DNA from: Trichodelitschia bisporula | Lineage: Eukaryota | Assembly (NCBI GenBank): GCA_010356995.1 | Contig: ML996707.1 | Span: 310,001 to 374,000 of the forward strand | Length of the DNA stretch: 64,000 nt | Direction of reading: 5' to 3' | Part shown: piece after piece, positions 20,513-64,000 of the stretch | Layout of the letters: each line of letters begins with the position of its first letter | Position numbering within the stretch: position 1 is the stretch's first letter | Notes under the pieces: generated by a model | What the model saw: the letters and a program-made list of their open reading frames with translations, nothing else | Databases searched by the model: none | Told to the model about the DNA's origin: nothing | Translations under genes and position numbers: made by a program

Positions 20513-20548
20513 GAAGAGAGGAAGAGAGGAAGAGAGGAAGAGAGGAAG
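20513..20548. repeat. (GAAGAGAG)4 tandem repeat
   Basis: Direct read. Confidence 0.85.
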
Positions 20549-20679
20549 TATCCTCCGTTGGTCCTTCCTTCTATCATACACTGATTACATCATGTTCCTT
20601 CCCAAGAGGAGCAATGCTTCTTCTATGTCCACGTCACGACTAGTGCCTAGTGGGGGGGTCTGGGTGCACTCTGAGGTGA

Positions 20680-21035
20680 TTCCTCTCACTCTGATCATTC
20701 TTCTCTCTCTCTGATGGTTCCTCTCTCTTTGATGGTTCTCTCTCTCTCTCTCTGATGTATCGCTCTCTCTCTGATGTATATATATCTCTCTCTGATTTAT
20801 CGCTCTCTCTCTGATGTATATATATATCTCTCTCTGATGTATCGCTCTCTCTCTGATGTATCGCTCTCTCTCTGATGTATCGCTCTCTCTCTGATGTATA
20901 TATCTCTCTCTGATGTATCTCTCTCTCTGATGGTATATCTCTCCGTCTCTGGTGGTATCTCTCTCTCTGATGGTATATCTCTCCGTCTCAGGTGGTATCG
21001 CTCTCTTTGTCATGGTTTTTCTCTCTCTCTGATAA
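20680..21035. repeat. Compound mini/microsatellite, unit ~ (CT)n-GATGTATCG / GATGTATATAT
   Basis: More than a dozen copies of CTCTCTCTGATG followed by variable TATCG/TATAT/GTTC. Confidence 0.9.
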
Positions 21036-48291: not shown

Positions 48292-49287
48292 ATGCCGGTG
48301 GGAATCATCCAGGTAGGTCTTGTTTATCCAGTTCGCATCCTTGCTCACCCTGGTAGCCCTCCAACCAGATCAAACTCACAAATGTGTCGCTGGTGCGGAT
48401 GAAGAAGGGTATGGCTCTTTACAGTGGTCAGATCTTTCGCTAAAGAGACAGGCAAAAAGCGCTTCGAAATCGCGTGCTACAAGAACAAAGTCCTCGAGTG
48501 GCGCAGCGGTGTTGAGAAAGATCTCGACAATGTCCTACAAATCCCAAATGTCTTCATGAACGTCAGCAAAGGGCAAGTTGCGTCGTCGCAAGATTTGGGC
48601 AAAGCTTTTGGCGAAAAGACGCCACTGAACGACATAATACTGGAGATCCTTACAAAGGGAGAGCAACAGGTTGGCGAGAAGGAACGGCAGGCGCAGCTGG
48701 AGCGGGTACATCACGAAGTCGTAGACATCGTGGCGGGAAAGCTGGTGGACCCGAAGACGAAGCGCGTCTACACGCCCGGCATGATTGAGAAGGCGCTCGA
48801 CCAGCTGAGCTCGCAGGCACAACAACCAGACAAGACGGCCAGCGGAACAGCGACACCCGAGACTGCCGCGGAGAAGGGCAAGCGCAAAGAGCTTCCTATC
48901 TGGACGGGCGTCGTCACTACAAGGTCGGCCAAGTCGCAAGCGCTCGAAGCGATGAAAGCCTTAATCGCCCATCAGCCCATTCCCGTAGCACGCGCTCGTA
49001 TGCGTCTCCGCATCACTTGCCCAACCAGTGTCCTCAAGCAGTCTGTCAAAGCCGCACCCAAAAGCGGCGACGGGCCGGAAGACAAGGCAACAGGAACAGT
49101 CAAGGACCGGATACTCGGTTATGTCGAGCAGGTGGAGAGCCAAGATGTCATAGGCGAGGATTGGGAGGTTATTGGCTTCGTCGAGCCCGGTGCGTTCAAA
49201 GCATTGACCGACTTCGTGGGTGGGCAGACGAAGGGACGCGCAAGAGCCGAAGTATTGGACATGGCTGTAGTTCACGAAGATGATTAG
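48292..49287 (+). CDS. SDO1: Ribosome maturation protein Sdo1/SBDS; 2 short 5' introns
   Basis: MPVGIIQ|PSNQIKLTNVSLVRMKKG|KKRFEIACYKNKVLEWRSGVEKDLDNVLQ; SAKSQAL; IARARMRLRI-like C-domain. Confidence 0.95.
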
Positions 49288-49544: not shown

Positions 49545-50158
49545 TTAACCCTTCTTCTTCGACACACCGACGGTACGACCACGACGGCCAGTGGTCTTAG
49601 AGTGCTGGCCGCGGACGCGAAGGCCCCAGAAGTGGCGCAGACCCCGATGGGCGCGGATCTTCTTCAGCCGCTCAAGATCGTCACGGAGCTTCGAGTCGAC
49701 ACCGTTGGCAAGAACCTGGGAGTCCTTGCCATCAACGATATCGCGCTGCCTGTTGAGGAACCATGAAGGGATCTTGTACTGCGTGGGGTTCTGGATGATC
49801 GTGACGATACGCTCCAATTCCTCAGAGGTGAGTTCACCAGCGCTGCTGCTATTAGCTCGGGCCGTGCGTCCGTCAAAATCCCGTACCGCTTGTTGAGATC
49901 CACATCGGCCTTCTTGCAGACCAAATTGGAGTAGCGGCGACCAACACCCTTTATCTTGGTCAGGGCGTACATGACCTTCTGCTTGCCTGCGTATTGTTAG
50001 TGTGTCCATGGAAGCGTGTGCGCTGGCGGGCGAGGACTGACCGTCGACATTGGTGTTAAGGAGACGGAGCTGAGCTGCATTAGCATAACAACACAGTATG
50101 AGAAATGAATACTGACAATGAACTGGAAGTTCGACTTCTCTCCACTGACGAGCGACAT
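49545..50158 (-). CDS. RPS18: 40S ribosomal protein S18 (uS13); 3 introns
   Basis: [66 protein letters not shown]...[33 protein letters not shown]. Confidence 0.98.
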
Positions 50159-51284
50159 GATGGCGGTTGATGGTGATGTCGTCGGTGTGGATTTCGAGGC
50201 GATGAGGAGAAGTGGTTTGTCGAGGAGCGATTGTGGGCGCGCTAGCGAAATTATTTATCCGGCCCGGCCCCTGGACGACGTTGAACCTTGGCAACCCTCC
50301 GTCTCGGATCATAGGCAGCCCTGAAGGGATACACTTCTTTCTGCTCCCCACTGCGCCTTACGGCAGTGGCATCTTGTGCAATTTATCTCTCTGTTGGCAA
50401 ACTAACTGCTTGGTAAACGGCACCTGGACTGCGAATGCATAGGTATGGAATCGCAGTCTACCTTCAACTTTTATCGCACTTCACTGCATCCCCCTGTAGA
50501 CTAATTCAAATGGGACATCCATCTTTAACTCAGCTGAAGTGGCTCGGTCCATAGGACCTCATGCCAAACCATATCAATTACCTGGGCTCATTACGTCCTC
50601 CGGGCGAAAACTTAGCCCGCAATGCCCGAATGCTCCTATGGTGGAACCACAACCCCTTTCAGAGCCATTCGCGATATGCTACTAAATTACGTTTTGTGAC
50701 TATTTTGGCCCACATCACCGCGCGAAGCCATGGCGCCCTTTCAAGGGCAACTTTGAGATTCCGGGGTTCCATCACTGGTGAAACCGTTGCTAGGACCATT
50801 TGTGAGCTGAGTCACAGGCGACTTTCAACATTGTGTCAGACGTAAGTAGTATATTTGGGCGATCTCATGAGCTAACGAAGGAAGTGGATCTGCCCATATC
50901 CATGCGTCGGTAGTTTACGTGGAAGGCGGACTTGGGGACTATACCATTCCTAAGGCATCGACCTCCAACGAAATGCAGACCACTTGTACAGGATCGCAAC
51001 TGCACTGTACTGTAGTGCTGCGACGGTGATTATCAGGCATTTCCCAGGTAATCAAGGTGTTGTAAGAGCAAGTGTGATGTGCGAAGTCTTACTTCCCTCG
51101 ATATTGTCCCCACGCACCCTCTCGATTTCAATCTCGCAATCTACTCCGTCTACCAACATCGCATTCTCTGGCAACCTCTGCAAACGCCGCAAGAATCTGC
51201 TCTCACCATCTTCATCTCCATCGCACATCCTTCTCGGTTTATTCTCGTCTGCCGTTCCGTCCTCTCCGACCGACAACGCCCAGG

Positions 51285-54200
51285 ATGGCCGCTCTGCCGA
51301 CCCTTTCGCCTATTCACCAGCAAATACCGTTACCTGCACAAATTTACCACTCGCAAGCATGGCTCTCAGTGCTGGTCTGGATTGCAGAATGTGTACCAGA
51401 GCAGGGGAAACCCATCTTAGACTTGCTGCATAAGATGAACTCGAAGGGTATCGACTGGAATTCGGAGGATATCGACTGGACGGGCGTTGACGAACCGAAG
51501 CTTAAGAGAGCAATGGCCGAATTTCCTATCGACCTCAATTGCTGGCTACACCAAGTCATCTTCAAGATCGAGGAGTACCACAGAACGCGCGACTGCGAAA
51601 ACTTGAAGGCCGACAAGGCCTCTGATAAATGTTACAAAAACATTACCAGCATTAGTAAAATCCTGAATGCTGTCGCTGTCCCGCCAACGTTTCCACTCAA
51701 GGCGGTTCCCATCAAACTGGATCACAGGTGCATTTCCCTCACGGCTCTCTCCCAAGCTGTACGGGATTCATCCAAGCGTCCTCGTACCTTATCGTCGGAT
51801 GCTTGTGAGAACGTCTGCTCACATCTTTTAGGCAAGTTTGTGTCTGTTCCTTGCCTCCAAACGCGCCCCCACTGAACCATGTTTTGGACCCGGTCGGGTT
51901 AAATGTGTTCTTTAACCTAGCAGAATCCAGTTTCACTCGCAAATACCTCAAAGGAGTATGGGAGAAGCGTGAGCGCAAAAGCGGCGATCATTTTACCGCA
52001 GCGGTTCTTACCGCAGCTGGCCTTGAGTTCTACGCGTGGGGGGTAGTGTCCATCTTTAGGCCAGACCAGAGAGTCGTCGCCAAGCTCAAAGTAGGGGATC
52101 CGATCCAGCACCATCATCTGATCAACGCGGTCTATCAGAAGAGTGCGGCGAAGCAGGCGGCCGACGACACCAGGGTCCCCAAGCTGATGGAAGAAATTGC
52201 GCACCAGTCCGAGGTGTTGACTGCCACTATGTCTCCAAACTCCCTTCCGTTCCTTCGGCCCTTTAAGGAGGTCTCAGGCAAGGACTTGGAATTCCTCGCA
52301 CGGCTGATGCTTGACCAACTTTATGATCATCGCTGCAAGCAGGACAACTACCTGAACCTGCAAAACTCCAACTTGGATGGATTTGCGAAGGCCTTGCACG
52401 AAGTGACGCTTAAAGGACTTGTGACACCCGAGGCTGTCCTTGCTGGCCGCATCCTGCTTGACATCCGGCGTATCTTCAAGGACAACTACCCCGGCCGTGA
52501 GAATATTAAGCACCAGGCCAAGCTGGTTATTGAGAAGTTCGAGTTGGACATGGTTGATGACGCGTTGGTATACAAGCCGCTTTTTAACCACATGCCGATG
52601 GCCAAGATGATGATGTCGAACCTCTACCTCTTCATCGGGTACTTCTGTGCACGCAACAGCGCAACCCACCTCTGGAAGCTCCATCTGCGGCTTTCTTACA
52701 ACTTTGATAAGAAGGAGAAGCGTGAGCCCCACTCCATCCTGCCATCAACGCGTGACTTGTGTACCGACGGCAATCCAATGCGTTGCGCGCTTCTGGAGTT
52801 AATGCTTGCCTCAAAGACCGAGGACGTTCGGTTAGGCTTTGCAAATTACACCTGCACTATCGCCCCCATGGCGCACCTCTTCAACGCTATGAATGTGATG
52901 GGGTTTTGTGAGCGCGGTTGGCATCGTCTACAAGAATGCATGGCATATCAGGGGCCCAGCATTTTTGGCTCGGACGTTGAGCTACCCAAGTCTCGCCAAA
53001 GCTTCCTCTCGGTCATGGAAAACCGCCTATGCGATGATACGTCTGATGGTACCTTGCGCCGCCCGCCTTGCGGCTGGAGATGGCAAATGACCCGGTCCCC
53101 GGCTACGGACATTTTAAGTGATCTCCTGCAGTGCGAAAGCAACTTCCCGTGGCACCATGAGGTTATGTTGCGTCTCGAACAATGCTACAAGCGGGTACAG
53201 GCTGCGCCTTGCGGAGAAGAAATTGGCGTCCAAAGGAGTGACCCGCAGCCAACCATCAAGGGAATTACAGCGGCGACGTTCCTCGACCGGCTCGAGACGC
53301 TGGTAACGGCGGCTCAAACTGAAATCAACTTTGACTACATCAAGCTTTCGGAGGACTGCTTCTTCATCCTGTGCACCATTTACAACACCCTTCTCTACTG
53401 CGATTATGCGATGGTAAGTTCCCGAGTGGAGTACATGTCACGCTCTGATATTTCCAGTTGCCAGTCCGCCCTTCTTGGGAGAGGCGCGGAATCTTTCATG
53501 TCGAGCTCACGTACATGTGTCACCTGCTCCTGGAGGAACTGGCGGAAGCCGGCGATGAACCCGACTACACGAAAGTTCTGGGCATCGTCATCGCCGCCAA
53601 AACCTTTGACGAAGTGGTCAATCAATGGCCGACGCTCGACAAACGCAAGCAGTACACGCTTATGTATATTCAGGGAAAGGGGGTTGAGCTCAAGGCCGAT
53701 CATCCCCTTCCGTACGCGGAACTCGGAGACCCGGACGAAGAGAACTTGAAGGATCGTTACGGCTGGTGTCAGCATGAGTTCGAAGGCAAATTACACGGAG
53801 TGCCAATGCAATGCCCCTACGATCGGGGTGTAGGCCATATAGCGCAGTTTCGCAGTTTGTTCGAGGAGCACGAGGGAGGAGAGTATAGCATCTCGCAACC
53901 TTTGTCTCTCAAGCGCGAGAGATCGCCTCCGCGCCCCATCCTCAACCCCTCTTCTACGCCGCCCACACTCGACAGTACCGTCGTCGCCCAACCCGTCGGC
54001 GAAAACCAGGCACCACCGACCCGTCCACCACCGGGAACTCTGGCTTCCGCGCCCCTACCAGCCAGCGGCGCTGTGCCCACGGTGACGGAGGAGCCGGCCA
54101 CGGATGGCGGGGAGGAGGAACTCATATTCATTTCGTCGGCGTCTGACTCTCACCGGATAGGAGATCATCCAACCCGCCCGCTGGCGGAGAACGTGAAGGT

Positions 54201-56028
54201 CGTGGCCAAGGACTATAAGAAGGTGGCCGAGGAAAGCGGGCCGGAGGATATTAGAGCAGCAGAGGTTCGACCGTCTGAGCCGGCCCGGCAAGGAGATGAC
54301 CGAGCCCTCCTGTTGGCGGAAGGGCTGAAAGATGTAAAGAAGGCGACGCGTGCGAAGAAGAAAAATAGGCCTACAGACAGTCGAACGGAGACTACGACTA
54401 CGGATCCCTCGCCGCCTGGAACGGAGAACGGCGGAGAGGCCACTGCGAGTACGACTACCACCAGCAATGATGGGAAGGACAAGGCTGCGCCTCCTCTGGC
54501 CTCCGCGCCCTTGCCAACCAGCGGCACTGTTCCCACGCAGGGACAGACGCCTACGGTGACGGAGGATCCGGCCAAGGACAGGGACTGGAAAGATATCGCG
54601 AGAGTGGAAGCTGAGGTGTCTGAGATGGTCCGGCAAGGAGATGACCGACCCACCCCGTTAAGGGAAAAGCTGAAAGGTGTAAAGAAGGCGACGCGTGCAA
54701 CGAAGGCAAAGGTGGATGCAGATATCCGAATGGAGGCTACGAGGACGGCAAATCCCTCGCCACTTGGAACGGGGAACGGCAGAGAGGCTACTGTGAGTAC
54801 GACTGCCACCAGTAATCAGGGGAAGGGCAAGGCTGCGCCTCCCCCGGCCCCCGCGCCCTTGCCAGACAGTGACACCGTACCCACGCAGGTACAGACACCT
54901 ACGGTGACTGAGAATCCGGCCGAGGATCGCGATTATGAGGAGATCAAGAGCGCAGACGCTCTGGTGTCTGAGATGGTCAGGCAAGGAGGTAACCGAGCCT
55001 CCTTCTCCGTGGAATGCATGAAAGCTGTAAAGGTGGGGCATGCAAAGAGGGCAAAGATGACTGCAGATAGCAGAACGGACGCTACGAGGACGACGAATCC
55101 CCCGTCTCCCGGGACCGGGGACGGCGGAGTGGCCATCGCGAGTACGACTACCACCAGCAATGAGGGGAAGGACAGCGCTGTTCTCCTCCCGGCTCGAATA
55201 TCCGGCGTCCAAAGTGCCCTGCAGCCGGTAGGTGACCATCCCAGATTGATTCGGCTTCCGACGACAGAGGAGTCGGCCGCGGACAGCAGTAAGGAGGCTA
55301 CTGCGGCGTCGGAACCCGTGTTCCCTGGGACGGGGAACAGCGAGGAGGCTACCACGGCCCCGACTGGCACTACCGATGAGGGGAAGAACCCGGCCAAGGT
55401 ACCGGATGAGACAGCCGCGGATCGTGGATCGGAAGCTACTGTTCCGAAAATCCTGCTGACTGGGCCGGAAAACAGCGCGGAAGTTACCGGGGAGGTCACC
55501 GAGGATATCACCAGGTCCTTGACTGGCACTGCCGAGGGCCAGAACTCGGCTGTGGCGCTGGAGGAGAGGGTGGCGGATTGCAAAGCGGGGGCTTCTCCTC
55601 CTCCTACTCCCCTTCTTCTTTCTCCTCCTCCTCATCATCCTCCTCTTACTCGTCCCCCTCCTCCTCCTTCGCCTCCTCTTTCTCCTCCGAAAACCCGGTT
55701 ATGTGGGTCAGGGAACAGTGCGGAGCTCACCGAAAGGGTCTATAAGGCGATCACCACAATTCCAAGTGGCCCCACCAACAAGGGCACGGGCCCAGCCACG
55801 GGGACGGAGAGAACGGCCGCGGATCACGACGCATCGGAGTCTTCCCCTCATGGCCGGGGGTCAGTGAGCGACAGTCTTGGAGAAGGAGGAGGGGAAGCAA
55901 GGGCCCCTGATCCGACTTCGGCTCACCTGCCCGGTGAATCACTTGAAATAACGGAGCTAATGGAAGGCTTACTAAACCGTCTGTCTGCGTCTCGGAACGA
56001 TCGACACGTGAAGCGGGGCCGGGTGTAG
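51285..56028 (+). CDS. Large orphan protein (~1500 aa): helical N-terminal two-thirds, repeat-rich disordered C-terminus; introns 51832-51920 (GC-AG) and 53414-53457
   Basis: Three long overlapping ORFs are joined in frame by AG|GCAAGT..TTAAC.TAG and GTAAGT..CTGAT..CAG. Motifs ILLDIRRIF, NPMRCA, MAHLFNA..W..G..IFG are reminiscent of DUF6604-containing fungal proteins (from memory, unverified). 5' end uncertain. Confidence 0.6.
54039..55200 (+). repeat. About 3 diverged coding repeats of ~348 nt (116 aa)
   Basis: AGTACGACT.CCACCAG.AAT at 54448, 54796, 55141; (L/P)A(S/P)APLP..VPT at 54039, 54496, 54844. Confidence 0.85.
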
Positions 56029-56576
56029 CGATGGACTGGATGGGGGTTGGCACCTTTCTATGCGCGTTTATGTGTGTTCGGGCACCGGGTTGTGGTTTGG
56101 CTATACGAAGCATTCGTTAGAAGGTGTTATTTCTGTGTGGTGTTGGACAAGGTCGGCTCTCGTTTTCGGCCGGGTTATGGCGCTCAAGGGAACCCATGGT
56201 TGTTTTGGTGTATCAAGACTTTGACAATTTGGGTTGCATTCTTCGTTCATATGCACTTTTCGCTGATATGCATTCTTCGCTGATATGAATTCTTCGCTCA
56301 TAGGTGTTGGGTTTCACAGTCCCAAGCCTCAGTGATGAAGCTATGACACCCGTCGACTTCCAAAGCTCACGAACCTCGACCGACTTCACAATGCTAGGGG
56401 CATAAGGAGTACATAAATCTTGGAGTACATCCTCCAACGAATTTTTTTTTTCTCTACTGTTCCACTGATCTGTAGACCGCCGTAAAGCACTGAGCTCATC
56501 GAACTTAGCGCTTTGACAGCAATTCTGCACGCATAGCTTGCCTCTACCCCTTGCTCTCCTTCCCTTCTTGGACGGA

Positions 56577-57188
56577 ATGGCTTCCTTCCTTCCAGAATTG
56601 CTGAAGCGTATCGTCGAGCACGATCGCTCTTCGAAGGAGACCTCAGATAAACCCCCAAAGCGCAGCATGCTCAGCATTCGTAGGAGCAAGGAGAAAGATC
56701 CGGAGGCCTCGCACTCGGAGGCTCTCGCCGCGGAAGAGTTTCAAACGCTCCATCACATCTTTCCGCACAGCCGCTGCGAGGTCGGTTTGGCGGACGAGAC
56801 CGCGCATGCTCCTCTGTCGCTCATCTGGCATGAAGACGCGCGGGATCCCAACTTCCCGGAGTACTTTTGGGATCCCGACGCTGCGGAAATTGACAAGGAC
56901 GAGCTTCAGGAATTATGGGACCGGCTCGAGCGGCCCATCTCCTTAGGCGAGTCTCTCGACTCTATCATATTCGAGCCGTCGCCATGGATCTCTCCGGCTG
57001 GAAGTCGAGAGTCAGCTGCACTTGAAAGAGAGTCAATCGACTCCATCTTACATGGCAGCATGTCGAGCGGCTCGAGCGACTTCGACCGGACATCATGGTA
57101 CACTGCGACTGGGAGTCGACGGTTATTTGACAGCGATGAGAGTGTCTATTATTCCGCATGTAGCGAAAACAGCTGGGTACTCGCATGA
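56577..57188 (+). CDS. Array unit 1 ORF (203 aa, acidic/Ser-rich, divergent N-terminus MASFLPELLKR)
   Basis: ATG 245 nt downstream of the unit dyad; open frame; no recognisable domain. Confidence 0.55.
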   Translation: MASFLPELLKRIVEHDRSSKETSDKPPKRSMLSIRRSKEKDPEASHSEALAAEEFQTLHHIFPHSRCEVGLADETAHAPLSLIWHEDARDPNFPEYFWDPDAAEIDKDELQELWDRLERPISLGESLDSIIFEPSPWISPAGSRESAALERESIDSILHGSMSSGSSDFDRTSWYTATGSRRLFDSDESVYYSACSENSWVLA

Positions 57189-57873
57189 TTAGCTTGCGAC
57201 AGAAATTGAAATTTGTCTGAATTACACAACTGCCCCATATGCCGCCTGAAGTGAAGTGAATTGCTAGCTTAGTAGTCCGAAGGGCCGATGATTAGCCACA
57301 CGTACTGTTGGAATGCCTGTGTTTTTGCGCTGTTTTGGGGCGGAGGCTCACCCTCTGTATTCTGTCTTGATTTGGAGCTCGAGGTAGTGCATGATGTGTT
57401 CGGTAATGCGGATGTTTGGCAGGAGCATTGTTATCAGGGAGGGGCACACTTATCTGAGGAAAGAATATACGCTATGCGCGCATAATGGGAGGAAGGAACA
57501 TAGGAAGAGATTTGCCACATTGTGTGTTGAATCTCGATCTCGGTTGCATTCTTCTTTAATAGGCCGGAGTTTCACAGTCGCAGACCTTAGTGATGAAGTT
57601 AGATCATGTCTCTCGGCTTCCAAAGCTCACGAATCTCAACAGTGAAGAAGGTATATCCCCATGCATCAGCTTCCAAGCCTCACGAGCCTCGACCGCCTTC
57701 ATAATCTTGGGGTCCTACGGAGAAATATATATCGTGGAGTATATCCTCCAAAGAATTCTTTTACTCTCCAGATCTCCAGTTCTCTGCAGACCCCCTTGAA
57801 GCCCCCAGCTCTTCAAACCATCTTTGAGCTGAACACTTTTCCCTCTCCTCGATCCTCCCATTCCGTTGTCAGA

Positions 57874-58266
57874 ATGGCTTTCCGCCTCTGGAAGTGTTTG
57901 AAGAAGCAGGTCGCCGGGTTGGGCGATAAGCTCAGTGGCAAGAAGAAGGGCCCGCTCCCTCAGCCTCGCGGCTCCGGGGCCGGCTCGTTGAATGCAGCCC
58001 CTGGAGCTCAGGCTCCTCTTCAGGGAAAGCCGCTGCCACCGTTGCCTGTCGGGTTGAATAAGCCACTGCCGCCGTTGCTTGTCGGGCCGGGGAATCCTGC
58101 GCCGCTGGATCCTGCTGTCAACGGCCCGGAGTTTTTCTCGGACCTCATCGCGGAGGACCTTAACGGAGGCGGCGTGCACATTGATGACGAAGAAGAGTAC
58201 AACTGGGATGGCTTCAACTTGAGGGCCACTCCTCCGTCGGCACCGATACCGCAAGAGCAGAACTAG
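57874..58266 (+). CDS. Array unit 2 ORF (130 aa): MAFRLWKCLKKQVAGLGDKL..., with KPLPPL x2
   Basis: Family N-terminal motif; intact frame. Confidence 0.65.
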   Translation: MAFRLWKCLKKQVAGLGDKLSGKKKGPLPQPRGSGAGSLNAAPGAQAPLQGKPLPPLPVGLNKPLPPLLVGPGNPAPLDPAVNGPEFFSDLIAEDLNGGGVHIDDEEEYNWDGFNLRATPPSAPIPQEQN

Positions 58267-58546
58267 GCTTCTGGGGTTAGTGATAAAAATGAAAATTAGT
58301 TTGACTTGGATAGTTGCGGCATATCGCGTGAAAAAAGTGGAGTGAAGAAACTAAAGTGAAGAATTTGCCGCTAAATTAATGGTCTGAAGAGCCTGAGATC
58401 AGCCTTGTGTACTGCTAGGAGGCGTTACGTGCTGCGTGGTGGTAAGCGAGGCTGACTCTTTTGTCGGCGTGGATTTTGGGATCAAGTAAGCGCGTGGTGG
58501 CTCTCGGTACATTGAGATATTATCAGGTCTAGTTCGCATTCTCCGT

Positions 58547-58832
58547 TGTCAGACTGAAGGCCTTCTAAGGTTCGCCAGCATCTAACAGTTGAGTGTTTCA
58601 GCCTTTCATGGTCAAACAAGGTTAGTCACAATGGGATGGAACAGTGATTATTCTCAAAAGACCGCGCCGGGCGGTACTTTTTACTGCGAGCTAGAGTTAT
58701 CGTTAAGTTTGCTTCATTTTCCATAAATGCTCTAGATAGTTGAACGGTTTCTTCTCCATATTGAAATCATCATCATTATCCTCTCAAAACCCACCCGCGG
58801 TGTTGCTCATCCTTGCTTCACCGTGTGTGACA
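58547..58832. mobile_element. Probable solo LTR or TE remnant (286 bp) in the unit 2-3 spacer
   Basis: Termini TGTCAGAC...GTGTGACA (TG..CA, 7/8 inverted); absent from the homologous spacers; no clear target-site duplication. Confidence 0.45.
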
Positions 58833-59144
58833 CTATACATTCTTCGTTAAGGCGTTAGACTTTCACAGCTGCCAGACCACATCAGAAGGCTCGGCATTGG
58901 TGGTGATGTTGTATCACGTCCACCGGCTTCCTTCCGAACCTCACGAACCTCAACCGACTTCACATGATAGTCCTAAGTGATGAAGCTATATCACAATCCG
59001 TCGGCGTTCAAGCCTCACAACCCTCCATCGACATCACAATCTCAAGGGACCTAGGGAGTATGTAAACTGTGCCGTATCTCCTCCAATAAATTCGTTTCCT
59101 CCCTACACCTCTCTACGCCCATTCTTCCCTCTCTCTTCTTTAGC

Positions 59145-59828
59145 GTGGATCCCAGCATCTGGAAATCGCTGAAAAAGCAGACCGCTGAGCTCGGCGATAA
59201 GCTTACCGCTAGTACTCAGAAGAAGAAGGATGACGCCTCTCGGCCTCGTCCCTCACCGATCTTTGAGTGGGCCCCGACCGCCATGATGTATCGCGGAATT
59301 AGGTCTGAGGACGCGGAAGACGTCTCTCGGCCTCGCACCGCTGGGCCTTCCACCTCTCGGCCTCCCACCGCTCGGCGTCCCACCGCTCGACCTTCCACCT
59401 CTCGGCCTCCCCCCTCTCGGCCTCGCACCTCTCGGTCTCGCACCTTACCGGGCAATGAGCGGGGCCCGACCACTGAGGATTATCGCCGGATCCGTCTGAG
59501 GACCTGGGAGGCGCTTCTCGGCCTCGCACCTGGGTCTGTGGATCCGGAAGGCGCCGTCCCGGGACTCGGCGAGGCATCTACAGATAAATCTGAGCCGACG
59601 CGGGAATTTAAAGGCCGGCCCGAGCGGCGCAGGTCCTGTGCCGGGGTCGAATGCACCGGGGAAAGCGATGACAACGACTCGCTTTACGGAATCGAGTCGA
59701 CTAAGAACACCTCATTTGGTAGGATGCCTGCGCTCTCGAAGACGCAGTCGGCTTACCCCGGGCTGCAAAGGAATAATCACTTTTGAGGTTGGAGCAATAC
59801 TAACTCAGTGCTAGGCTTTTGTGGTTAG
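59145..59828 (+). pseudogene. Array unit 3 gene with start codon GTG instead of ATG; VDPSIWKSLKKQTAELGDKL...; intron 59719-59814
   Basis: Family motif but GTGGAT where paralogues have ATGGCT; internal 15-nt repeats 59325-59445; frame otherwise open. Confidence 0.55.
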
Positions 59829-60335
59829 GGATAAAAATCTAGAAATCGAATACATTCTGACGAGGATAAATGCCATGTATCGCGTGAAGTGAAGTGAAGT
59901 GAAGTAAGTGCTGCCAACGCAGTAATATGAAGAGCCTCAGATTAGCCTTGTGTACTTCTAGGATGCGTTTTGATGTAGTCATGGCAGGAATATTGATACG
60001 GAAGGAGCATAGGAGGATACTTAGCATCGTGCATGTAGGCTCGAGTCTCTACTCTCTTTAGTCTGCCTAGAACATGCGCTCGAGAAAGCGCGTGACAGGC
60101 TCGGTACATAGAGACGTTATCTGGTCCAGGCCGTATTCTCCGTTCCTAGGCGTTAGAATTTCATACGTGTCAGGCCAGAAGACTCACATCAGTGATGAAG
60201 TTGCATTACGTCTATAGGCTTCCAAACCTCACGGCCCTCAACCGACATCACAATCTCAAGGGCTTAAGGAGTACATGAATCGCGCCGTATCCTCTAACAA
60301 ATTTCTTTCTTCCCCGCACCTCTCTCTTCTTCAGC

Positions 60336-60779
60336 ATGGCTCATCCCTGGAAACTGTTGAAAAAGCAGGCGGCCGAGCTCCGCGAAAAGCTTACTGTTGG
60401 CAGTCAAAAGAAGAAGTCTACCCCCGGGCCTCGCACCTCCTGGTTCTATACGTGGGACCCAGTTACCATGACCTAGCGCCAGTCCAGGTATAAAGACCCG
60501 GATGCCGACGGGGAGTCTACGGACGGGCGTGAGCCGGCCTGGGAATTCGAAGATGCGCCCGAGCAGCGCCGCTCCTGGGCCATCGATACGATTAAATCGC
60601 TCGACGCCATTTCGTTCGGTAAGGTGCCGTGCCTTGCGAAGACGCAGTCCATATAGGAATTTAACTGCAATGGGAATCTGCTCTGAGGCTGTTGCAATAC
60701 TAACTGGGTACTAGGGTTTTGGGTTGGTAACAGAAATCTAAGGATTGAATTTAGTTTGACGAGAATAGCTGCCATGTGA
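60336..60779 (+). pseudogene. Array unit 4 gene MAHPWKLLKKQAAELREKL... with in-frame TAG at 60474-60476; intron 60619-60714
   Basis: Frame continues after the TAG (ESTDGREPAWEFEDAPEQRRSW) and aligns with unit 3 (EASTDKSEPTREFKGRPERRRSC). Confidence 0.65.
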
Positions 60780-60820
60780 AGTAAGTAAAGTGAAGTAGTT
60801 ACTACGAGCTAAAATGAAGA

Positions 60821-61518
60821 GTGATGTGGGCATGGAGACAGGTAGGCATCAAGGCAAACATCCTAATTTGGGTGATACGCTGTCCTGATGACGGTTATCA
60901 TGAGCTTGTTGGCACGCTGCCAGATCTTCAATATGCTTTCGAAGTTGGCGGCGGGCTCCCTTTCGTTGCGACGTGCAACGATACTGACCCCGTCATCGAC
61001 ACGGAGCCGGATCTTCCTACTCGTCACGAAAGGGAGCCCGCTGCTAACTTCGAAAGCAGATTGAAGATCTGGCAGCGTGCCAACAAGCTCATGATGGCCG
61101 TCATTAGGGAGCGTATCACCCAAGCTGGCCCATAACCTGTGAGAAATGGGTGCCAAAGGGGTGAGTAAACGTGGTGATTGCATTGATTGAGGTTAGGAAG
61201 TGGGAAATATCCTACTTCCTAACACCAATGGGCTGATGACTAATACACATATTATGTGACTACATCAAATCACGTTTGCTCAGTGGCTCCATCACACATG
61301 ATTGCAACACCTAACCCAGGCATGTGATTTCGTTGGAAGGAATATCACATTCGGGAAGGCACAAGGGTAAGAGAGTGGAAGGAGCTATAGGAATAATATA
61401 TGCCACATCATATACTTAGTCCGGAGAGTCTCTTGACTCTCTTTTCCCGTCGTCTTTTATCAAATGCTTCACATTTCAACGTCGCACTGCACCAGCCATG
61501 AGCCCTGCCATACATCAC
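60821..61518. mobile_element. 698-bp insertion in the unit 4-5 spacer with short terminal inverted repeats and an internal fold-back
   Basis: Ends GTGATGT...ACATCAC; interrupts ATGAAGA|..TCAGAT.AGCCTTG, which is contiguous in the unit 3-4 spacer. Confidence 0.55.
60868..61123. repeat. Long inverted repeat: arms 60868-60966 and 61026-61123, 59-nt loop
   Basis: Arms are reverse complements with 7 substitutions and 1 indel over ~98 bp. Confidence 0.95.
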
Positions 61519-62106
61519 AAAGGTTCAGATGAGCCTTGCGTACTGCTAGGACGCGTTTGATGTAGTCGTGGCAGGAATATTGATACGTGAAGAAGCTGCA
61601 TATCTTTTAGGAAAGAACATGATCTAATGTGAGCATGATGGGAAGAAGGAGCGTAGGAGAATACTTAGCATCGTATATTTAGACTCGAGAGCCTCTACTC
61701 TCTTTGGTTCGCCTAGATGCTGGGCTCGTGTAAGCGCGTGGCAGGCTCGGTATTTCGAGGCGTTATCGGATCTAACTCACTTCGTTAATAGACATTGTTC
61801 GTTAATAGGCGTTAGACTTCCACACTCACTAGGATCCAACAGAAGGCTCACATCAGGGATGAATTTCCATCACGTCGATCAGTTTCAAACCTCACTCACC
61901 TCAGCAGTGATGAACTTCCATCACGTCTATCAGTTTCTAAACTTTACTCACCTCAACCGACATCACAATCCCAAGGGCCTAGGAACAATATGAATCGCGC
62001 CGTACATTCTCAAACGAATTATTTTCCTCCTCACCCCCAATATCCCCAATAACCCCAATACCCTCAACGCCCTCAGCACCCTCTCTCTTCTCCGTCTTCC
62101 TTTACT

Positions 62107-62601
62107 ATGGCTCCCAGTTTCTGGCAACAGCTGAAAAAGCAGGCCACCGGCCTCCGCGAAAAGACCGCTGCTTACGCTCTCACGAAGAAGGATAGTAGTA
62201 AGATAAAGGCTGCCCCCCAGCCTCGCACCTCGCGGGATGCAACCGCCGGTATTCCTCGCCGGCACCAGAACGCGGACGCGTACGTGGCGGTCCTGGGCGA
62301 CATCTGATATCCTGAAGGGTTGGATGATACTTATAACCCTGGTTGGGTATCATTTACTATTGTGCCCACGCGGCGCTGGAGCTGGGCTGGCTTCGAGTGT
62401 ACCCGTGAGAACGATGCGGACTCCGAGTATAGCGATAGGGAATCCGAATTTTAAGGAAGTTGGAGCGATCGATGCGATGGAGAGGATCGAGGATATCCCA
62501 TTCGGTAAGGTACCTTTGATGTCGAAGAAGCGATTGTTTTAGGGACTTAACTGCGGTAGGAGAGTGGGTTGAGATTAGCTGCAATGCTAACAACAATTAA
62601 G
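62107..62601 (+). pseudogene. Array unit 5 gene MAPSFWQQLKKQATGLREK... with premature TGA (62305-62307) and a later stop/frameshift; intron-like 62505-62601
   Basis: Post-stop frame RRWSWAGFECTRENDADS aligns with unit 3 RRRSCAGVECTGESDDNDS. Confidence 0.6.
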
Positions 62602-63130
62602 AATCGAATATGGTCTAACTCGGATAGCTGCCATGCATCGCGTGATGTGAAGTGAACTAAACTGAAATAATTACCCCCACCTTGGTGATATGATGAGCCA
62701 CAGATTGGCCTTGCGTACTGCTTAGGAAGGAACATGATCTATTGTGCGTATAGTGGGAGGAAGGGGTAGAGGAGGATACTTAGCATCTATCGTACATTTG
62801 GACTCGAGAGTCTCTATTCTCTTCTATCTGCCCAGATTATGGGTTCGAGTAAGCACATAGCAGAATCGATACATCGAGACATTATCCGCCCTAGGTCATA
62901 TTATTCGTTTCTGGGCGTTAGAACTTCACATTCATCAGGCTATACTTGAAGACTCACATCAGTGATGAACTTCCATCACGCCCATCAACTTCCAAACCTC
63001 ACGAAATCTCAACCGTTATCACAATCTCAAGGGCCTAGGAAGTATATATACACGCCGTCCATCCTCCAACGAATCTTGTTTTCCTCGCCAGTCCTCTCTA
63101 CACCCTATCTCCTCTCCTTCTTCCTTCAAA

Positions 63131-63406
63131 ATGGCTCCCCGCCTCTGGTCCCTGCTAAAAAGGCAAGCCGCCGGCCTGCGCGACGAGCTCCGCGAAAAGA
63201 TCGAAAAGCAAGCCGCTGGGCTCCGCAACGAGCTCCGCGACAAGCTCCCCACTCGCATTCTCACGAAGAAGGGCCGTGGTAAGATGCCTAGGCTTGCGAA
63301 GACGCGGTCGGTTTAGGAGTTTAGCTGCGACGGGGTGTTTGATCTGGGGCCTTTTTGCGATACCGACTTGGAGTTAGGCGTTTTTGGGTTGGTGATAGAA
63401 ATCTAG
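63131..63406 (+). CDS. Array unit 6 mini-gene MAPRLWSLLKRQAAGLRDELREKIEKQAAGLRNELRDKL...; unspliced stop at 63316, spliced (intron 63279-63377) stop at 63406
   Basis: Family motif with internal duplication; central region deleted; TATATA ~85 nt upstream. Confidence 0.6.
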
Positions 63407-63670
63407 AAATTGAAATTAGTCCGATGAAGATAGCAACCATGTGGAAGTGAAATGAAATGATTACCACTAACTTAGAATATGAAGGGAGAGGAGAGGAGCA
63501 AAGGATATTAGTATCGTACATCTTGACTCAAGAGTCTCTACTCTTTTTTGTCCGCCCAGATTGTAGGCTCGAGTAAGCGCGTGTCGGCTCTGGAAAATCG
63601 AGACGTTATCCGGTTGAACTCATTTCCTTAATATACACATTCTTCGTCAATAGGCGTCAGTCTTCCACTA

Positions 63671-63878
63671 GGTGGAGGCGCCCGCCTTGTGGACAGTCAA
63701 AGACTTCATACATATGAAAGACGTGTTGAAGACATCGTACGCTTCAAAGAGTAAGCGTTGAAGGCTTTCACTACGTTCCTCTGCGAGCGTTCCTCTCAAG
63801 CGTCTCTACGAGCGTCTTGCTAGAGCGTAGTGAGCGGTGGCATATTGAAAAGTGTGAGGATACTCGCCAGACTCCACC
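63671..63878. mobile_element. Possible MITE-like 208-bp insertion in the unit 6-7 spacer
   Basis: Ends GGTGGAG...CTCCACC; internal AGCGT repeats; absent from homologous spacers. Confidence 0.35.
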
Positions 63879-64000
63879 AAAAGGCCCAGCATTAGTGATG
63901 AACATCCATCACGTCCATCCCCTCCCAACCCTCAAACCCCCTCACAATCCCGCAGGCCTAGGAAGTTTTAAATAGCGCCGTACGTCCTCCAGCGAATTCT

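Follow-up and report, generated by a model that had tools for sequence, protein, structure and literature searches.

A tandem array of a probable orphan gene family in Trichodelitschia bisporula, with flanks better conserved than its reading frames

A stretch of 64,000 nucleotides (nt) from the dung-inhabiting Dothideomycete Trichodelitschia bisporula (contig ML996707.1, positions 310,001-374,000; "the window" in the following, with coordinates counted from its first base) ends in an array of seven head-to-tail units, U1 to U7. We consider it probable that this array is an orphan protein-coding family of T. bisporula that arose by repeated local duplication of a unit of ~1.2 kilobases (kb) and evolves by birth and death. 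The tandem paralogues comprise intact as well as pseudogenised copies, with three of the six open reading frames (ORFs) in the window intact (U1, U2 and U6) and three broken (U3, U4 and U5), and no relatives were found off the array's own contig. A tandem, domain-less birth-and-death family is also what an earlier interpretation of this DNA from its letters (the sequence-only reading) had proposed, and our results agree with it on this point. Less usual for such a family is that the flanks are kept in all copies while the coding bodies have diverged to saturation, and that even U1, the most diverged member, keeps its 5' module.

Layout and reading frames of the array

The seven occurrences of a 40-nt anchor are 1313, 1335, 1214, 1715, 1056 and 923 nt apart (repeat family D3), and a MAFFT alignment shows the same module order in all seven units (Table 1), which bears out the earlier count of at least seven copies. 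Each unit opens with a pyrimidine-rich "CATTCTTCGTTAATAG" block, followed by the core 5' module and a leader that is again rich in pyrimidines; then come a plus-strand ORF, a 3' block with the GTGAA-rich tail at its end, and the spacer. Components of the core 5' module are the palindrome AGTGATGAA...CATCAC, the blocks CTTCCAAACCTCACG and TCACAATC..GGCCTAGGAAG (the block beginning TCACAATC is also written TCACAATC..CCTAGGAAG), a TATA-like box and CCTCCAACGAATT. Within the window these core modules are restricted to the array: AGTGATGAANNTNCATCAC, allowing up to 2 mismatches, has 10 matches against 0.04 expected, all within 57589-63913 and made up of 7 plus-strand sites (57589-63894) plus 3 of these re-matching as minus-strand palindromes, and a second 5'-module block has 4 matches against 0 expected. 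The GTGAA-rich tail, part of the sequence-only description, is found in all six units whose 3' part falls inside the window, and the five N-termini quoted there for units 2 to 6 read exactly as given. Unit length varies from 0.75 to 1.65 kb, mainly through insertions of ~730 nt in U4, ~280 nt after U2 (58556-58837) and ~225 nt in U7.

The plus-strand frames of these units look protein-coding by several measures. Their GC content at the three codon positions (GC1/GC2/GC3: 0.56/0.47/0.65 in U1, 0.67/0.48/0.71 in U2, 0.54/0.50/0.72 in U4 and 0.66/0.48/0.75 in U6) follows the pattern GC1>GC2<GC3 of the window's housekeeping genes, for which the SacI gene (0.62/0.43/0.74) may serve as comparison, and the mean over the three positions is 0.56-0.63 in the ORF frames versus 0.45-0.49 in the flanks. 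After shuffling, the frames stayed open in only 4 (U1), 334 (U2) and 40 (U3) of 20000 trials each. Insertions and deletions keep the frame, as seen for a 3-nt gap in U4, the 15-nt repeats of U3 and a 45-nt duplication in U6. The flanks, in turn, are non-coding, since their conservation in tblastx is equal in every frame, includes stops and prefers no frame. An alignment of the units with P0005, an annotated protein of 157 amino acids (aa) from the same contig (alignment A4), links conserved blocks in a constant order: the N-terminal MAxxxWxxLKKQAxxLxxKL, a lysine run with PRTS, EW.PTAMM.R, an acidic stretch, ERRRSWAG, AID...SLD.I and FGKVPxLAKTQS. U1, in which the N-terminus is barely recognisable, retains DPDA..W..ER..SLD.I.F. 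These shared blocks show that all units derive from one ancestral protein. P0005 itself, an intact member, is not encoded in the window and is most probably the ORF of U7, which is cut at base 64000 directly after its leader.

At their 3' ends, U3 to U6 read through into a common C-terminal motif (FGRMPALSKTQS, FGKVPCLAKTQS, FGKVPLMSKKRL and GKMPRLAKTRS) with synonymous differences among the copies (CCT/CCG, CTC/CTT, TCG/TCC and GTG/GTA), and a TAG stands at the identical codon in U4, U5 and U6 (TAC at the corresponding position of U3). The sequence-only reading had placed a 3' intron here in units 3 to 6, which we do not retain: the GTAAG taken as its donor encodes the Gly-Lys of the C-terminal motif, and as we read the sequences its splicing would skip this conserved motif, so that the C-termini would be unrelated between units. 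The contigs described below run unspliced through the proposed intron in U6 (62958-63402) and 74 nt into it in U5, and none of those aligned to the window has a joint at the proposed introns, with the limit that contigs lose rare forms; over U3 and U4 they include the interval but are antisense-oriented and hence uninformative there. Downstream of the shared stop lies a conserved, branch-site-like TACTAAC (59795-59815 and 60695-60715; TGCTAAC in U5 at 62583-62600 and TACCGAC in U6 at 63360-63378) with a TAG ~10 nt later. A minor 3' intron might end here, and a minor spliced isoform is possible.

The ORF bodies had been described as hypervariable in length, and this variation is present but partly reflects gene decay. 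U3 has GTG in place of the start codon, with its earliest in-frame ATG at 59283 and eight 15-nt repeats at 59324-59445. U4 is broken by an in-frame TAG, and U5 by a TGA and a frameshift near 62452 that is followed by a C-terminal piece with the FGKVP motif (62456-62542). In U6 the middle has been deleted, so that the N-terminal motif with its 45-nt duplication continues in frame into the C-terminal motif. The insertion of U4 (60800-61530) holds a near-perfect palindrome of ~256 nt (self-match 60868-61123; arms 60884-60971 and 61021-61108, 91% complementary), a spacer-like fragment and another, smaller hairpin (61186-61229). This insertion occurs only once in the window, and the antisense contig of this region ends inside it. 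A candidate conserved upstream ORF was rejected, since the invariant ATG in AGTGATGAA opens frames that differ between units.

Public annotation captures this array incompletely. Exact look-up of seven ORFs in the protein collection returned two, the ORF of U2 (P0001) and an 837-aa neighbour (P0002), while the U1 (203 aa) and U6 (61 aa) of our reading are absent, as are the broken U3, U4 and U5. The public model P0003 (79 aa) takes its start from U5, whose first 30 codons (62107-62197) it fuses over an annotated ~970-nt intron (62198-63167) to the U6 ORF from 63168 onward. By our reading of the sequence P0003 is an annotation artefact. Contigs aligned to the window cross 62198 unspliced and contain no joint for this intron, although contigs lose rare forms.

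Spliced transcripts and conservation of the flanks

Contigs from two sequencing runs of one sample, the kind of which is a guess, are 100% identical to the window apart from four GT..AG joints of 48-62 nt, two on each strand (Table 1). These four deletions carry the ends and branch sites of introns while the sequence around them is identical, for which spliced RNA is the best explanation; that the contigs derive from RNA is deduced from the joints. They carry no information on strand, ends or level, so that strand was assigned from the splice dinucleotides, and they leave 57107-58912 (including U2) and 61020-61320 uncovered. The joint at 60138-60187 is found in one contig of each of the two runs, its shorter side measuring 158 nt, with no other letters. 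Together with the second minus-strand joint it defines an RNA of at least 1.8 kb that runs antisense through the broken U4 and the start-less U3; this spliced antisense RNA has no ORF common to the units. A plus-strand RNA that reaches back to at least 61355 leads into U5 and loses two introns in the spacer; further contigs lie over U6, over the 5' half of U1 and over the spacer between U6 and U7. The sequence-only reading had held that a lack of transcription in every unit, if joined by an N-terminal motif no more constrained than flanking DNA, would speak against its proposal, and spliced contigs lie over several of the units. A maintained open frame combined with transcription, as expected of an orphan gene, is thus indicated by the shuffling, the GC periodicity and the spliced contigs over U3-U6 plus the 5' half of U1.

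Since spacer introns are spliced in U5, part of the "conserved spacer" appears to be exon-intron structure. The GTAAGC donor is kept in four of the five spacers that hold the motif (58486, 61730, 62849 and 63573; GAAAGC at 60084). What had been described as an "upstream module" does exist as a conserved block, but it coincides with the 3' splice site used in U5; in U1 this acceptor-like module is triplicated with a 17-nt period (56235-56302).

The earlier impression that the non-coding flanks are better conserved than the ORF middles is confirmed by mean pairwise identity in bins of 30 columns (973 columns with at least four units). The bins of the 5' module reach 0.59-0.74 and those of tail and spacer 0.53-0.76, compared to 0.51-0.59 for the N-terminal block, 0.33-0.48 for the ORF middle, 0.52 in the bin of the C-terminal motif and 0.47 in the next bin (stop and first 3' bases). 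All copies share ~240 nt upstream and ~350 nt downstream at roughly 70-75% identity, arranged in short blocks. The 5' module keeps a p-distance of 0.23-0.39 in all 21 unit pairs, even those with U1, whose ORF is at or near saturation (p-distance 0.52-0.71 to every other unit), and on these grounds co-regulation of the units can reasonably be inferred. Synonymous-difference proportions in the alignable codons of the N-terminal block of U2-U6 (0.31-0.61) exceed the flank distances. The flank similarity would result from purifying selection on discrete cis elements such as promoter sites and splice or 3'-end signals, which we favour because the conservation is short and block-wise.

Recent gene conversion as the cause of this similarity was rejected, given that exact matches between units reach 22 nt at most; 18 of the 20 that measure at least 14 nt lie outside the ORFs. 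No conserved RNA structure emerged either, with 0 predicted pairs in the 3' module and only the invariant 6-bp palindrome, lacking compensatory change, in the 5' module, and Rfam returned no match at E<=1. A C/D-box small nucleolar RNA was considered for the GTGATGA block and dismissed, as no D box was found by eye and Rfam was empty. We also read no signature of repeat-induced point mutation, the indices being 0.77 and 1.2 in the array versus 0.63 and 1.2 in the rest of the window.

In a tree of 487 shared columns, neighbouring units pair as (U1,U2), (U3,U4) and (U5,U6), with terminal branches of 0.15-0.47 and very short internal ones, which points to an origin of the array by old local duplications. 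Rapid diversification had been proposed for the family, but the Nei-Gojobori ratio of nonsynonymous to synonymous change (dN/dS) of ~0.3-1.6 in alignable blocks does not support diversifying selection; it is above 1 in 8 of 30 unit pairs, five of them involving the saturated U1 and none significance-tested. This pattern fits weak or relaxed constraint combined with repeat slippage.

Table 1. Coordinates of the array, its units and the features discussed in the text.
Feature	Position	Strand	Remark
Whole array, seven head-to-tail units	56237..64000	+	runs past the window end
Unit 1	56237..57545	+	ORF 56577-57188, 203 aa, intact, most diverged member, N-terminus MASFLPELLKR
Unit 2	57546..58837	+	ORF 57874-58266, 130 aa, annotated as P0001, intact, proline-rich middle
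Unit 3	58838..60125	+	open frame 59145-59786, 213 codons, GTG where the family has ATG
Unit 4, broken	60126..61779	+	frame 60336-60656, in-frame TAG 60474-60476 (TAT in U3)
Unit 5, broken	61780..62894	+	ATG 62107, TGA 62305-62307, TAA 62452-62454
Unit 6	62895..63639	+	ORF 63131-63316, 61 aa, intact, middle lost in frame
Unit 7	63640..64000	+	5' module only in the window; ~225-nt insertion 63665-63890
Core 5' module, example from U6	62961..63075	+	palindrome GTGATG-N6-CATCAC, TCACAATC..GGCCTAGGAAG, TATA-like box, CCTCCAACGAAT
C-terminal motif and shared TAG, example from U4	60615..60656	+	equivalents 59715-59750 (U3), 62501-62542 (U5), 63278-63316 (U6)
Putative intron, 50 nt	60138..60187	-	GTGAGT...TTCTAAC...AG; in the 5' module of U4
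Putative intron, 48 nt, same minus-strand RNA	60346..60393	-	GTAAGC...CAG after 1-nt shift of the cut; inside the N-terminal motif of U4
Putative intron, 54 nt	61629..61682	+	GTGAGC...TTTAG; spacer upstream of U5
Putative intron, 62 nt	61730..61791	+	GTAAGC...CTAAC...TAG; acceptor is the "upstream module" of the sequence-only reading

Predicted proteins, their relatives and the neighbourhood

A Pfam scan of five proteins (the ORFs of U1, U2, U3 and U6 and the upstream 837-aa protein) found no Pfam-A family at gathering score, with only sub-threshold matches to T4_RIIA1 (17.2 versus 27 bits) and LNYV_PP_C (13.1 versus 27 bits), in line with the earlier statement that no domain is recognisable. 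A sequence search of the PDB gave a best E of 0.1 (STI1 fragment) and then 0.97 for alignment A4, and nothing for U1. In an AlphaFold model of P0005 built with A4 (predicted template modelling score 0.22), a helix at residues 3-26 has a predicted local distance difference test (pLDDT) score of 80-86 and a second one at 132-144 reaches ~74; outside these two helices the protein is predicted to be disordered, and the family shows neither a folded domain nor a cysteine motif. The Atlas model of P0005 (pLDDT 0.51) agrees, and the Atlas search yielded no usable match for this protein. U1 modelled alone is unstructured (pLDDT 32.7). The N-terminal helix of ~24 residues is amphipathic (helical moment 0.43-0.56 in the five members scored), and U2 and P0005 share a charge dipole with a net charge of +8 over the N-terminal third and of -9 or -7 over the C-terminal one. 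By hydropathy we see no signal peptide (Kyte-Doolittle mean of the first 20 residues -0.97 to 0.07), the N-terminus being a charged amphipathic helix, and no transmembrane stretch in any of five proteins (maximum 19-residue hydropathy at most 0.78).

A HMMER profile run against 1.84 billion representatives gave four matches at E<=0.001, namely P0001, P0003, P0005 and the low-complexity P0004, which is false, and a word-indexed profile against 5.8 billion proteins had P0001, P0003 and P0005 among 4116 candidates. P0003 and P0005 are "hypothetical protein" records with consecutive accessions from the array's own contig. The search with the U3 protein gave 1839 candidates with 0 at E<=0.01, residues 1-40 of U2 found only themselves, and in metagenome scans the DNA pattern had 0 matches and the P0005 pattern 147, of which 0 were confirmed. 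We therefore see a family that appears taxonomically restricted (orphan), with no relatives detected outside its own contig by profiles that included U1, which was not searched alone, and with close species that may be unsequenced.

As had been noted earlier, the array lies beyond a conserved block of SBDS/SDO1 (48403-49284) and the ribosomal S13/S18 gene (RPS18; 49548-50357), from which ~6 kb of domain-less ORFs separate it. Two long open frames of 265 and 646 codons (stop to stop; 51078-53749, plus strand) between RPS18 and P0002 have no Pfam match, so that the domain-less zone begins ~5 kb before the array. P0002 (53515-56028, plus strand), directly upstream of the array, is likewise domain-less and the sole member of its 90% cluster; its gene includes a 348-nt sequence repeated 2.6 times in tandem (54273-55174) as well as a proline/serine-rich CTC run (55595-55688), and one unbroken contig spans it into the U1 ORF. 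None of 32 ORFs (191-1075 aa) picked from the rest of the window is a HET, NACHT or NOD-like receptor (NLR) type neighbour.

A sub-motif of ~60 nt in the spacers (GGAAGGAACATGAT...GGAGGATACTTAGC-like) occurs at 60001-60045, 61380-61470, 61597-61690 and 62712-62800 and again far from the array at 20546-20608 (minus strand), the latter being the single match of blastn between the units and the rest of the window (63 nt, 75% identity). This distant copy adjoins GA-rich simple repeats. A long, imperfect GA-rich repeat of the "CATCAGAGAGAGAGCGATA" type occupies intergenic sequence at 20660-20900. The sub-motif also appears in contigs that fit the array over ~29-30 nt only, one of them at a word depth of ~2800 versus 3-43 for array contigs, indicating that a far more strongly expressed transcript elsewhere in the genome carries it. 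Since it is a spliced intron in U5, the sub-motif is possibly an introner-like element.

Alternative explanations and comparison with known systems

Several observations weigh against a protein-coding family. Constraint at the protein level is weak, with a dN/dS of ~0.4-1.3 in the N-terminal block of U2-U6 and 233/203/226 differences at the three codon positions, that is, no third-position excess. By binned identity as well as by p-distance (0.25-0.41 in U2-U6), the N-terminal motif is no better kept than the 5' module and no more constrained than flanking DNA, an outcome that the sequence-only reading had listed, jointly with a lack of transcription, as counting against its own proposal. Half of the ORFs in the window are broken, and where U3 and the 5' part of U4 are covered, the sole contig shows antisense splicing. 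The contig of U5 begins upstream of the unit and has introns removed in the spacer, so that the TATA-like box, which may lie in a promoter or inside a long 5' untranslated region, could be in the latter. In part for these reasons, the functional product might instead be an RNA or a DNA repeat (a long noncoding RNA, a sense-antisense locus or a regulatory repeat), with the ORFs as remnants of a dead gene. Flanks more conserved than any coding block, that range of dN/dS, the broken frames and spliced RNA from both strands, including a minus-strand intron within the N-terminal motif of U4, would all fit this explanation, but without selection, frames that stay open for 203, 130 and 213 codons would be very unlikely, the contig has an annotated 157-aa relative, and codon-position GC periodicity as in real genes, in-frame indels and a shared stop also speak against it. 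With no conserved RNA structure, no Rfam match and no shared antisense ORF besides, we regard a purely RNA- or repeat-based function as unlikely. It is very improbable that the family is not truly orphan and that its units are runaway copies of a conserved ascomycete gene with U1 as the closest surviving form. The first Atlas matches of U1, a "YBR071W-like protein" (0.85) and a "hypothetical protein" (0.84), do belong to Ascomycota clusters, and U1, the most diverged copy, shares its DPDA..W..ER..SLD.I.F blocks with the other units. However, the tool rates these matches as a lead only: the scores are below 0.9, recognition reaches 1389 against a bar of 2300, and shuffled proteins attain 0.8 a third of the time, while profiles containing U1 have no matches off the contig and Pfam and PDB are empty.

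The sequence-only reading had also called this architecture typical of conflict loci (meiotic drive, allorecognition or effectors), and it is indeed tandem, lineage-specific and fast-diverging, with conserved control regions, antisense transcripts and pseudogenes; the charge dipole of U2 and P0005 could be added to this list. That the array works in genetic conflict, for instance in spore killing, as a poison-antidote pair or in allorecognition, with intact copies under positive selection and broken ones as donors or regulators, nevertheless seems improbable to us. The dN/dS is not consistently above 1 (8 of 30 pairs), no long identical tracts indicate gene conversion, and nothing else that we found points there, be it a signal peptide, a transmembrane stretch, a Pfam or PDB similarity or a HET, NACHT or NLR neighbour among the 32 ORFs. 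We would give similarly little credence to a specific conflict cassette in which selection retains a common scaffold of promoter and RNA-processing signals that fires all copies at one life stage (e.g., in asci or spores), the disordered bodies, framed by an unchanging docking helix and C-terminal motif, diversify as killer and protector or as self and non-self determinants, and decayed copies act as spliced sense and antisense RNAs that tune the intact ones. Least plausible of all is the tandemly amplified non-autonomous mobile element that had been offered as an alternative. The spacer sub-motif at 20546-20608 and in contigs from elsewhere is what speaks for it, but no terminal repeats bound the units (three inverted pairs, none at unit edges, and no long terminal repeats), no transposase or reverse-transcriptase ORF is among the array and window ORFs examined, and apart from that 63-nt match the remaining 56 kb hold no unit sequence. 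Furthermore, each unit is closest to its neighbour and the branches are long, as local duplication would leave them.

We thus return to an orphan protein-coding family and regard the array as a real yet fairly ordinary lineage-specific gene family. Under this interpretation, the disordered body would drift by substitutions, indels and repeat slippage, whereas the proteins might act via their two short conserved ends, with the helix possibly serving for docking or oligomerisation and the C-terminal motif possibly being a linear motif. A factor binding the shared palindrome might switch the family on together; both of these suggestions are made with low confidence. The locus offers a compact example of a lineage-specific tandem family in birth and death in a poorly studied Dothideomycete and a natural experiment on whether regulation or protein is the constrained part of a young gene and on how pseudogenes turn into spliced sense and antisense RNAs. 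It also corrects public annotation, in which P0003 is fused and U1 and U6 are missing.

The killer meiotic drivers wtf, Spok and SKC1 are lineage-specific and fast evolving, and SKC1 is a small ORF with antisense transcripts. The array resembles these systems in being lineage-specific and fast evolving, a likeness of architecture only, and differs from them in that its proteins have neither transmembrane segments nor sequence shared with the drivers. With the introner-like elements of Dothideomycetes (PMC4457414) the array has in common that the spliced 54-nt intron at 61629-61682 has look-alikes in other units, at 20.5 kb and in other transcripts; unlike them, the similarity here extends ~24 nt upstream of the donor, so that the repeat exceeds the intron. 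The closest parallel may be drawn to clustered orphan genes, which are well known in filamentous fungi, such as the lineage-specific gene (LSG) clusters of Neurospora (PMC10684091). As described there, these clusters likewise hold short, domain-less proteins that lack detectable relatives and are physically clustered. While the Neurospora clusters adjoin HET-domain genes, the array of T. bisporula adjoins SBDS and RPS18, and it is set apart from them as a strict one-family, head-to-tail array in which the flanks are more conserved than the coding sequence.

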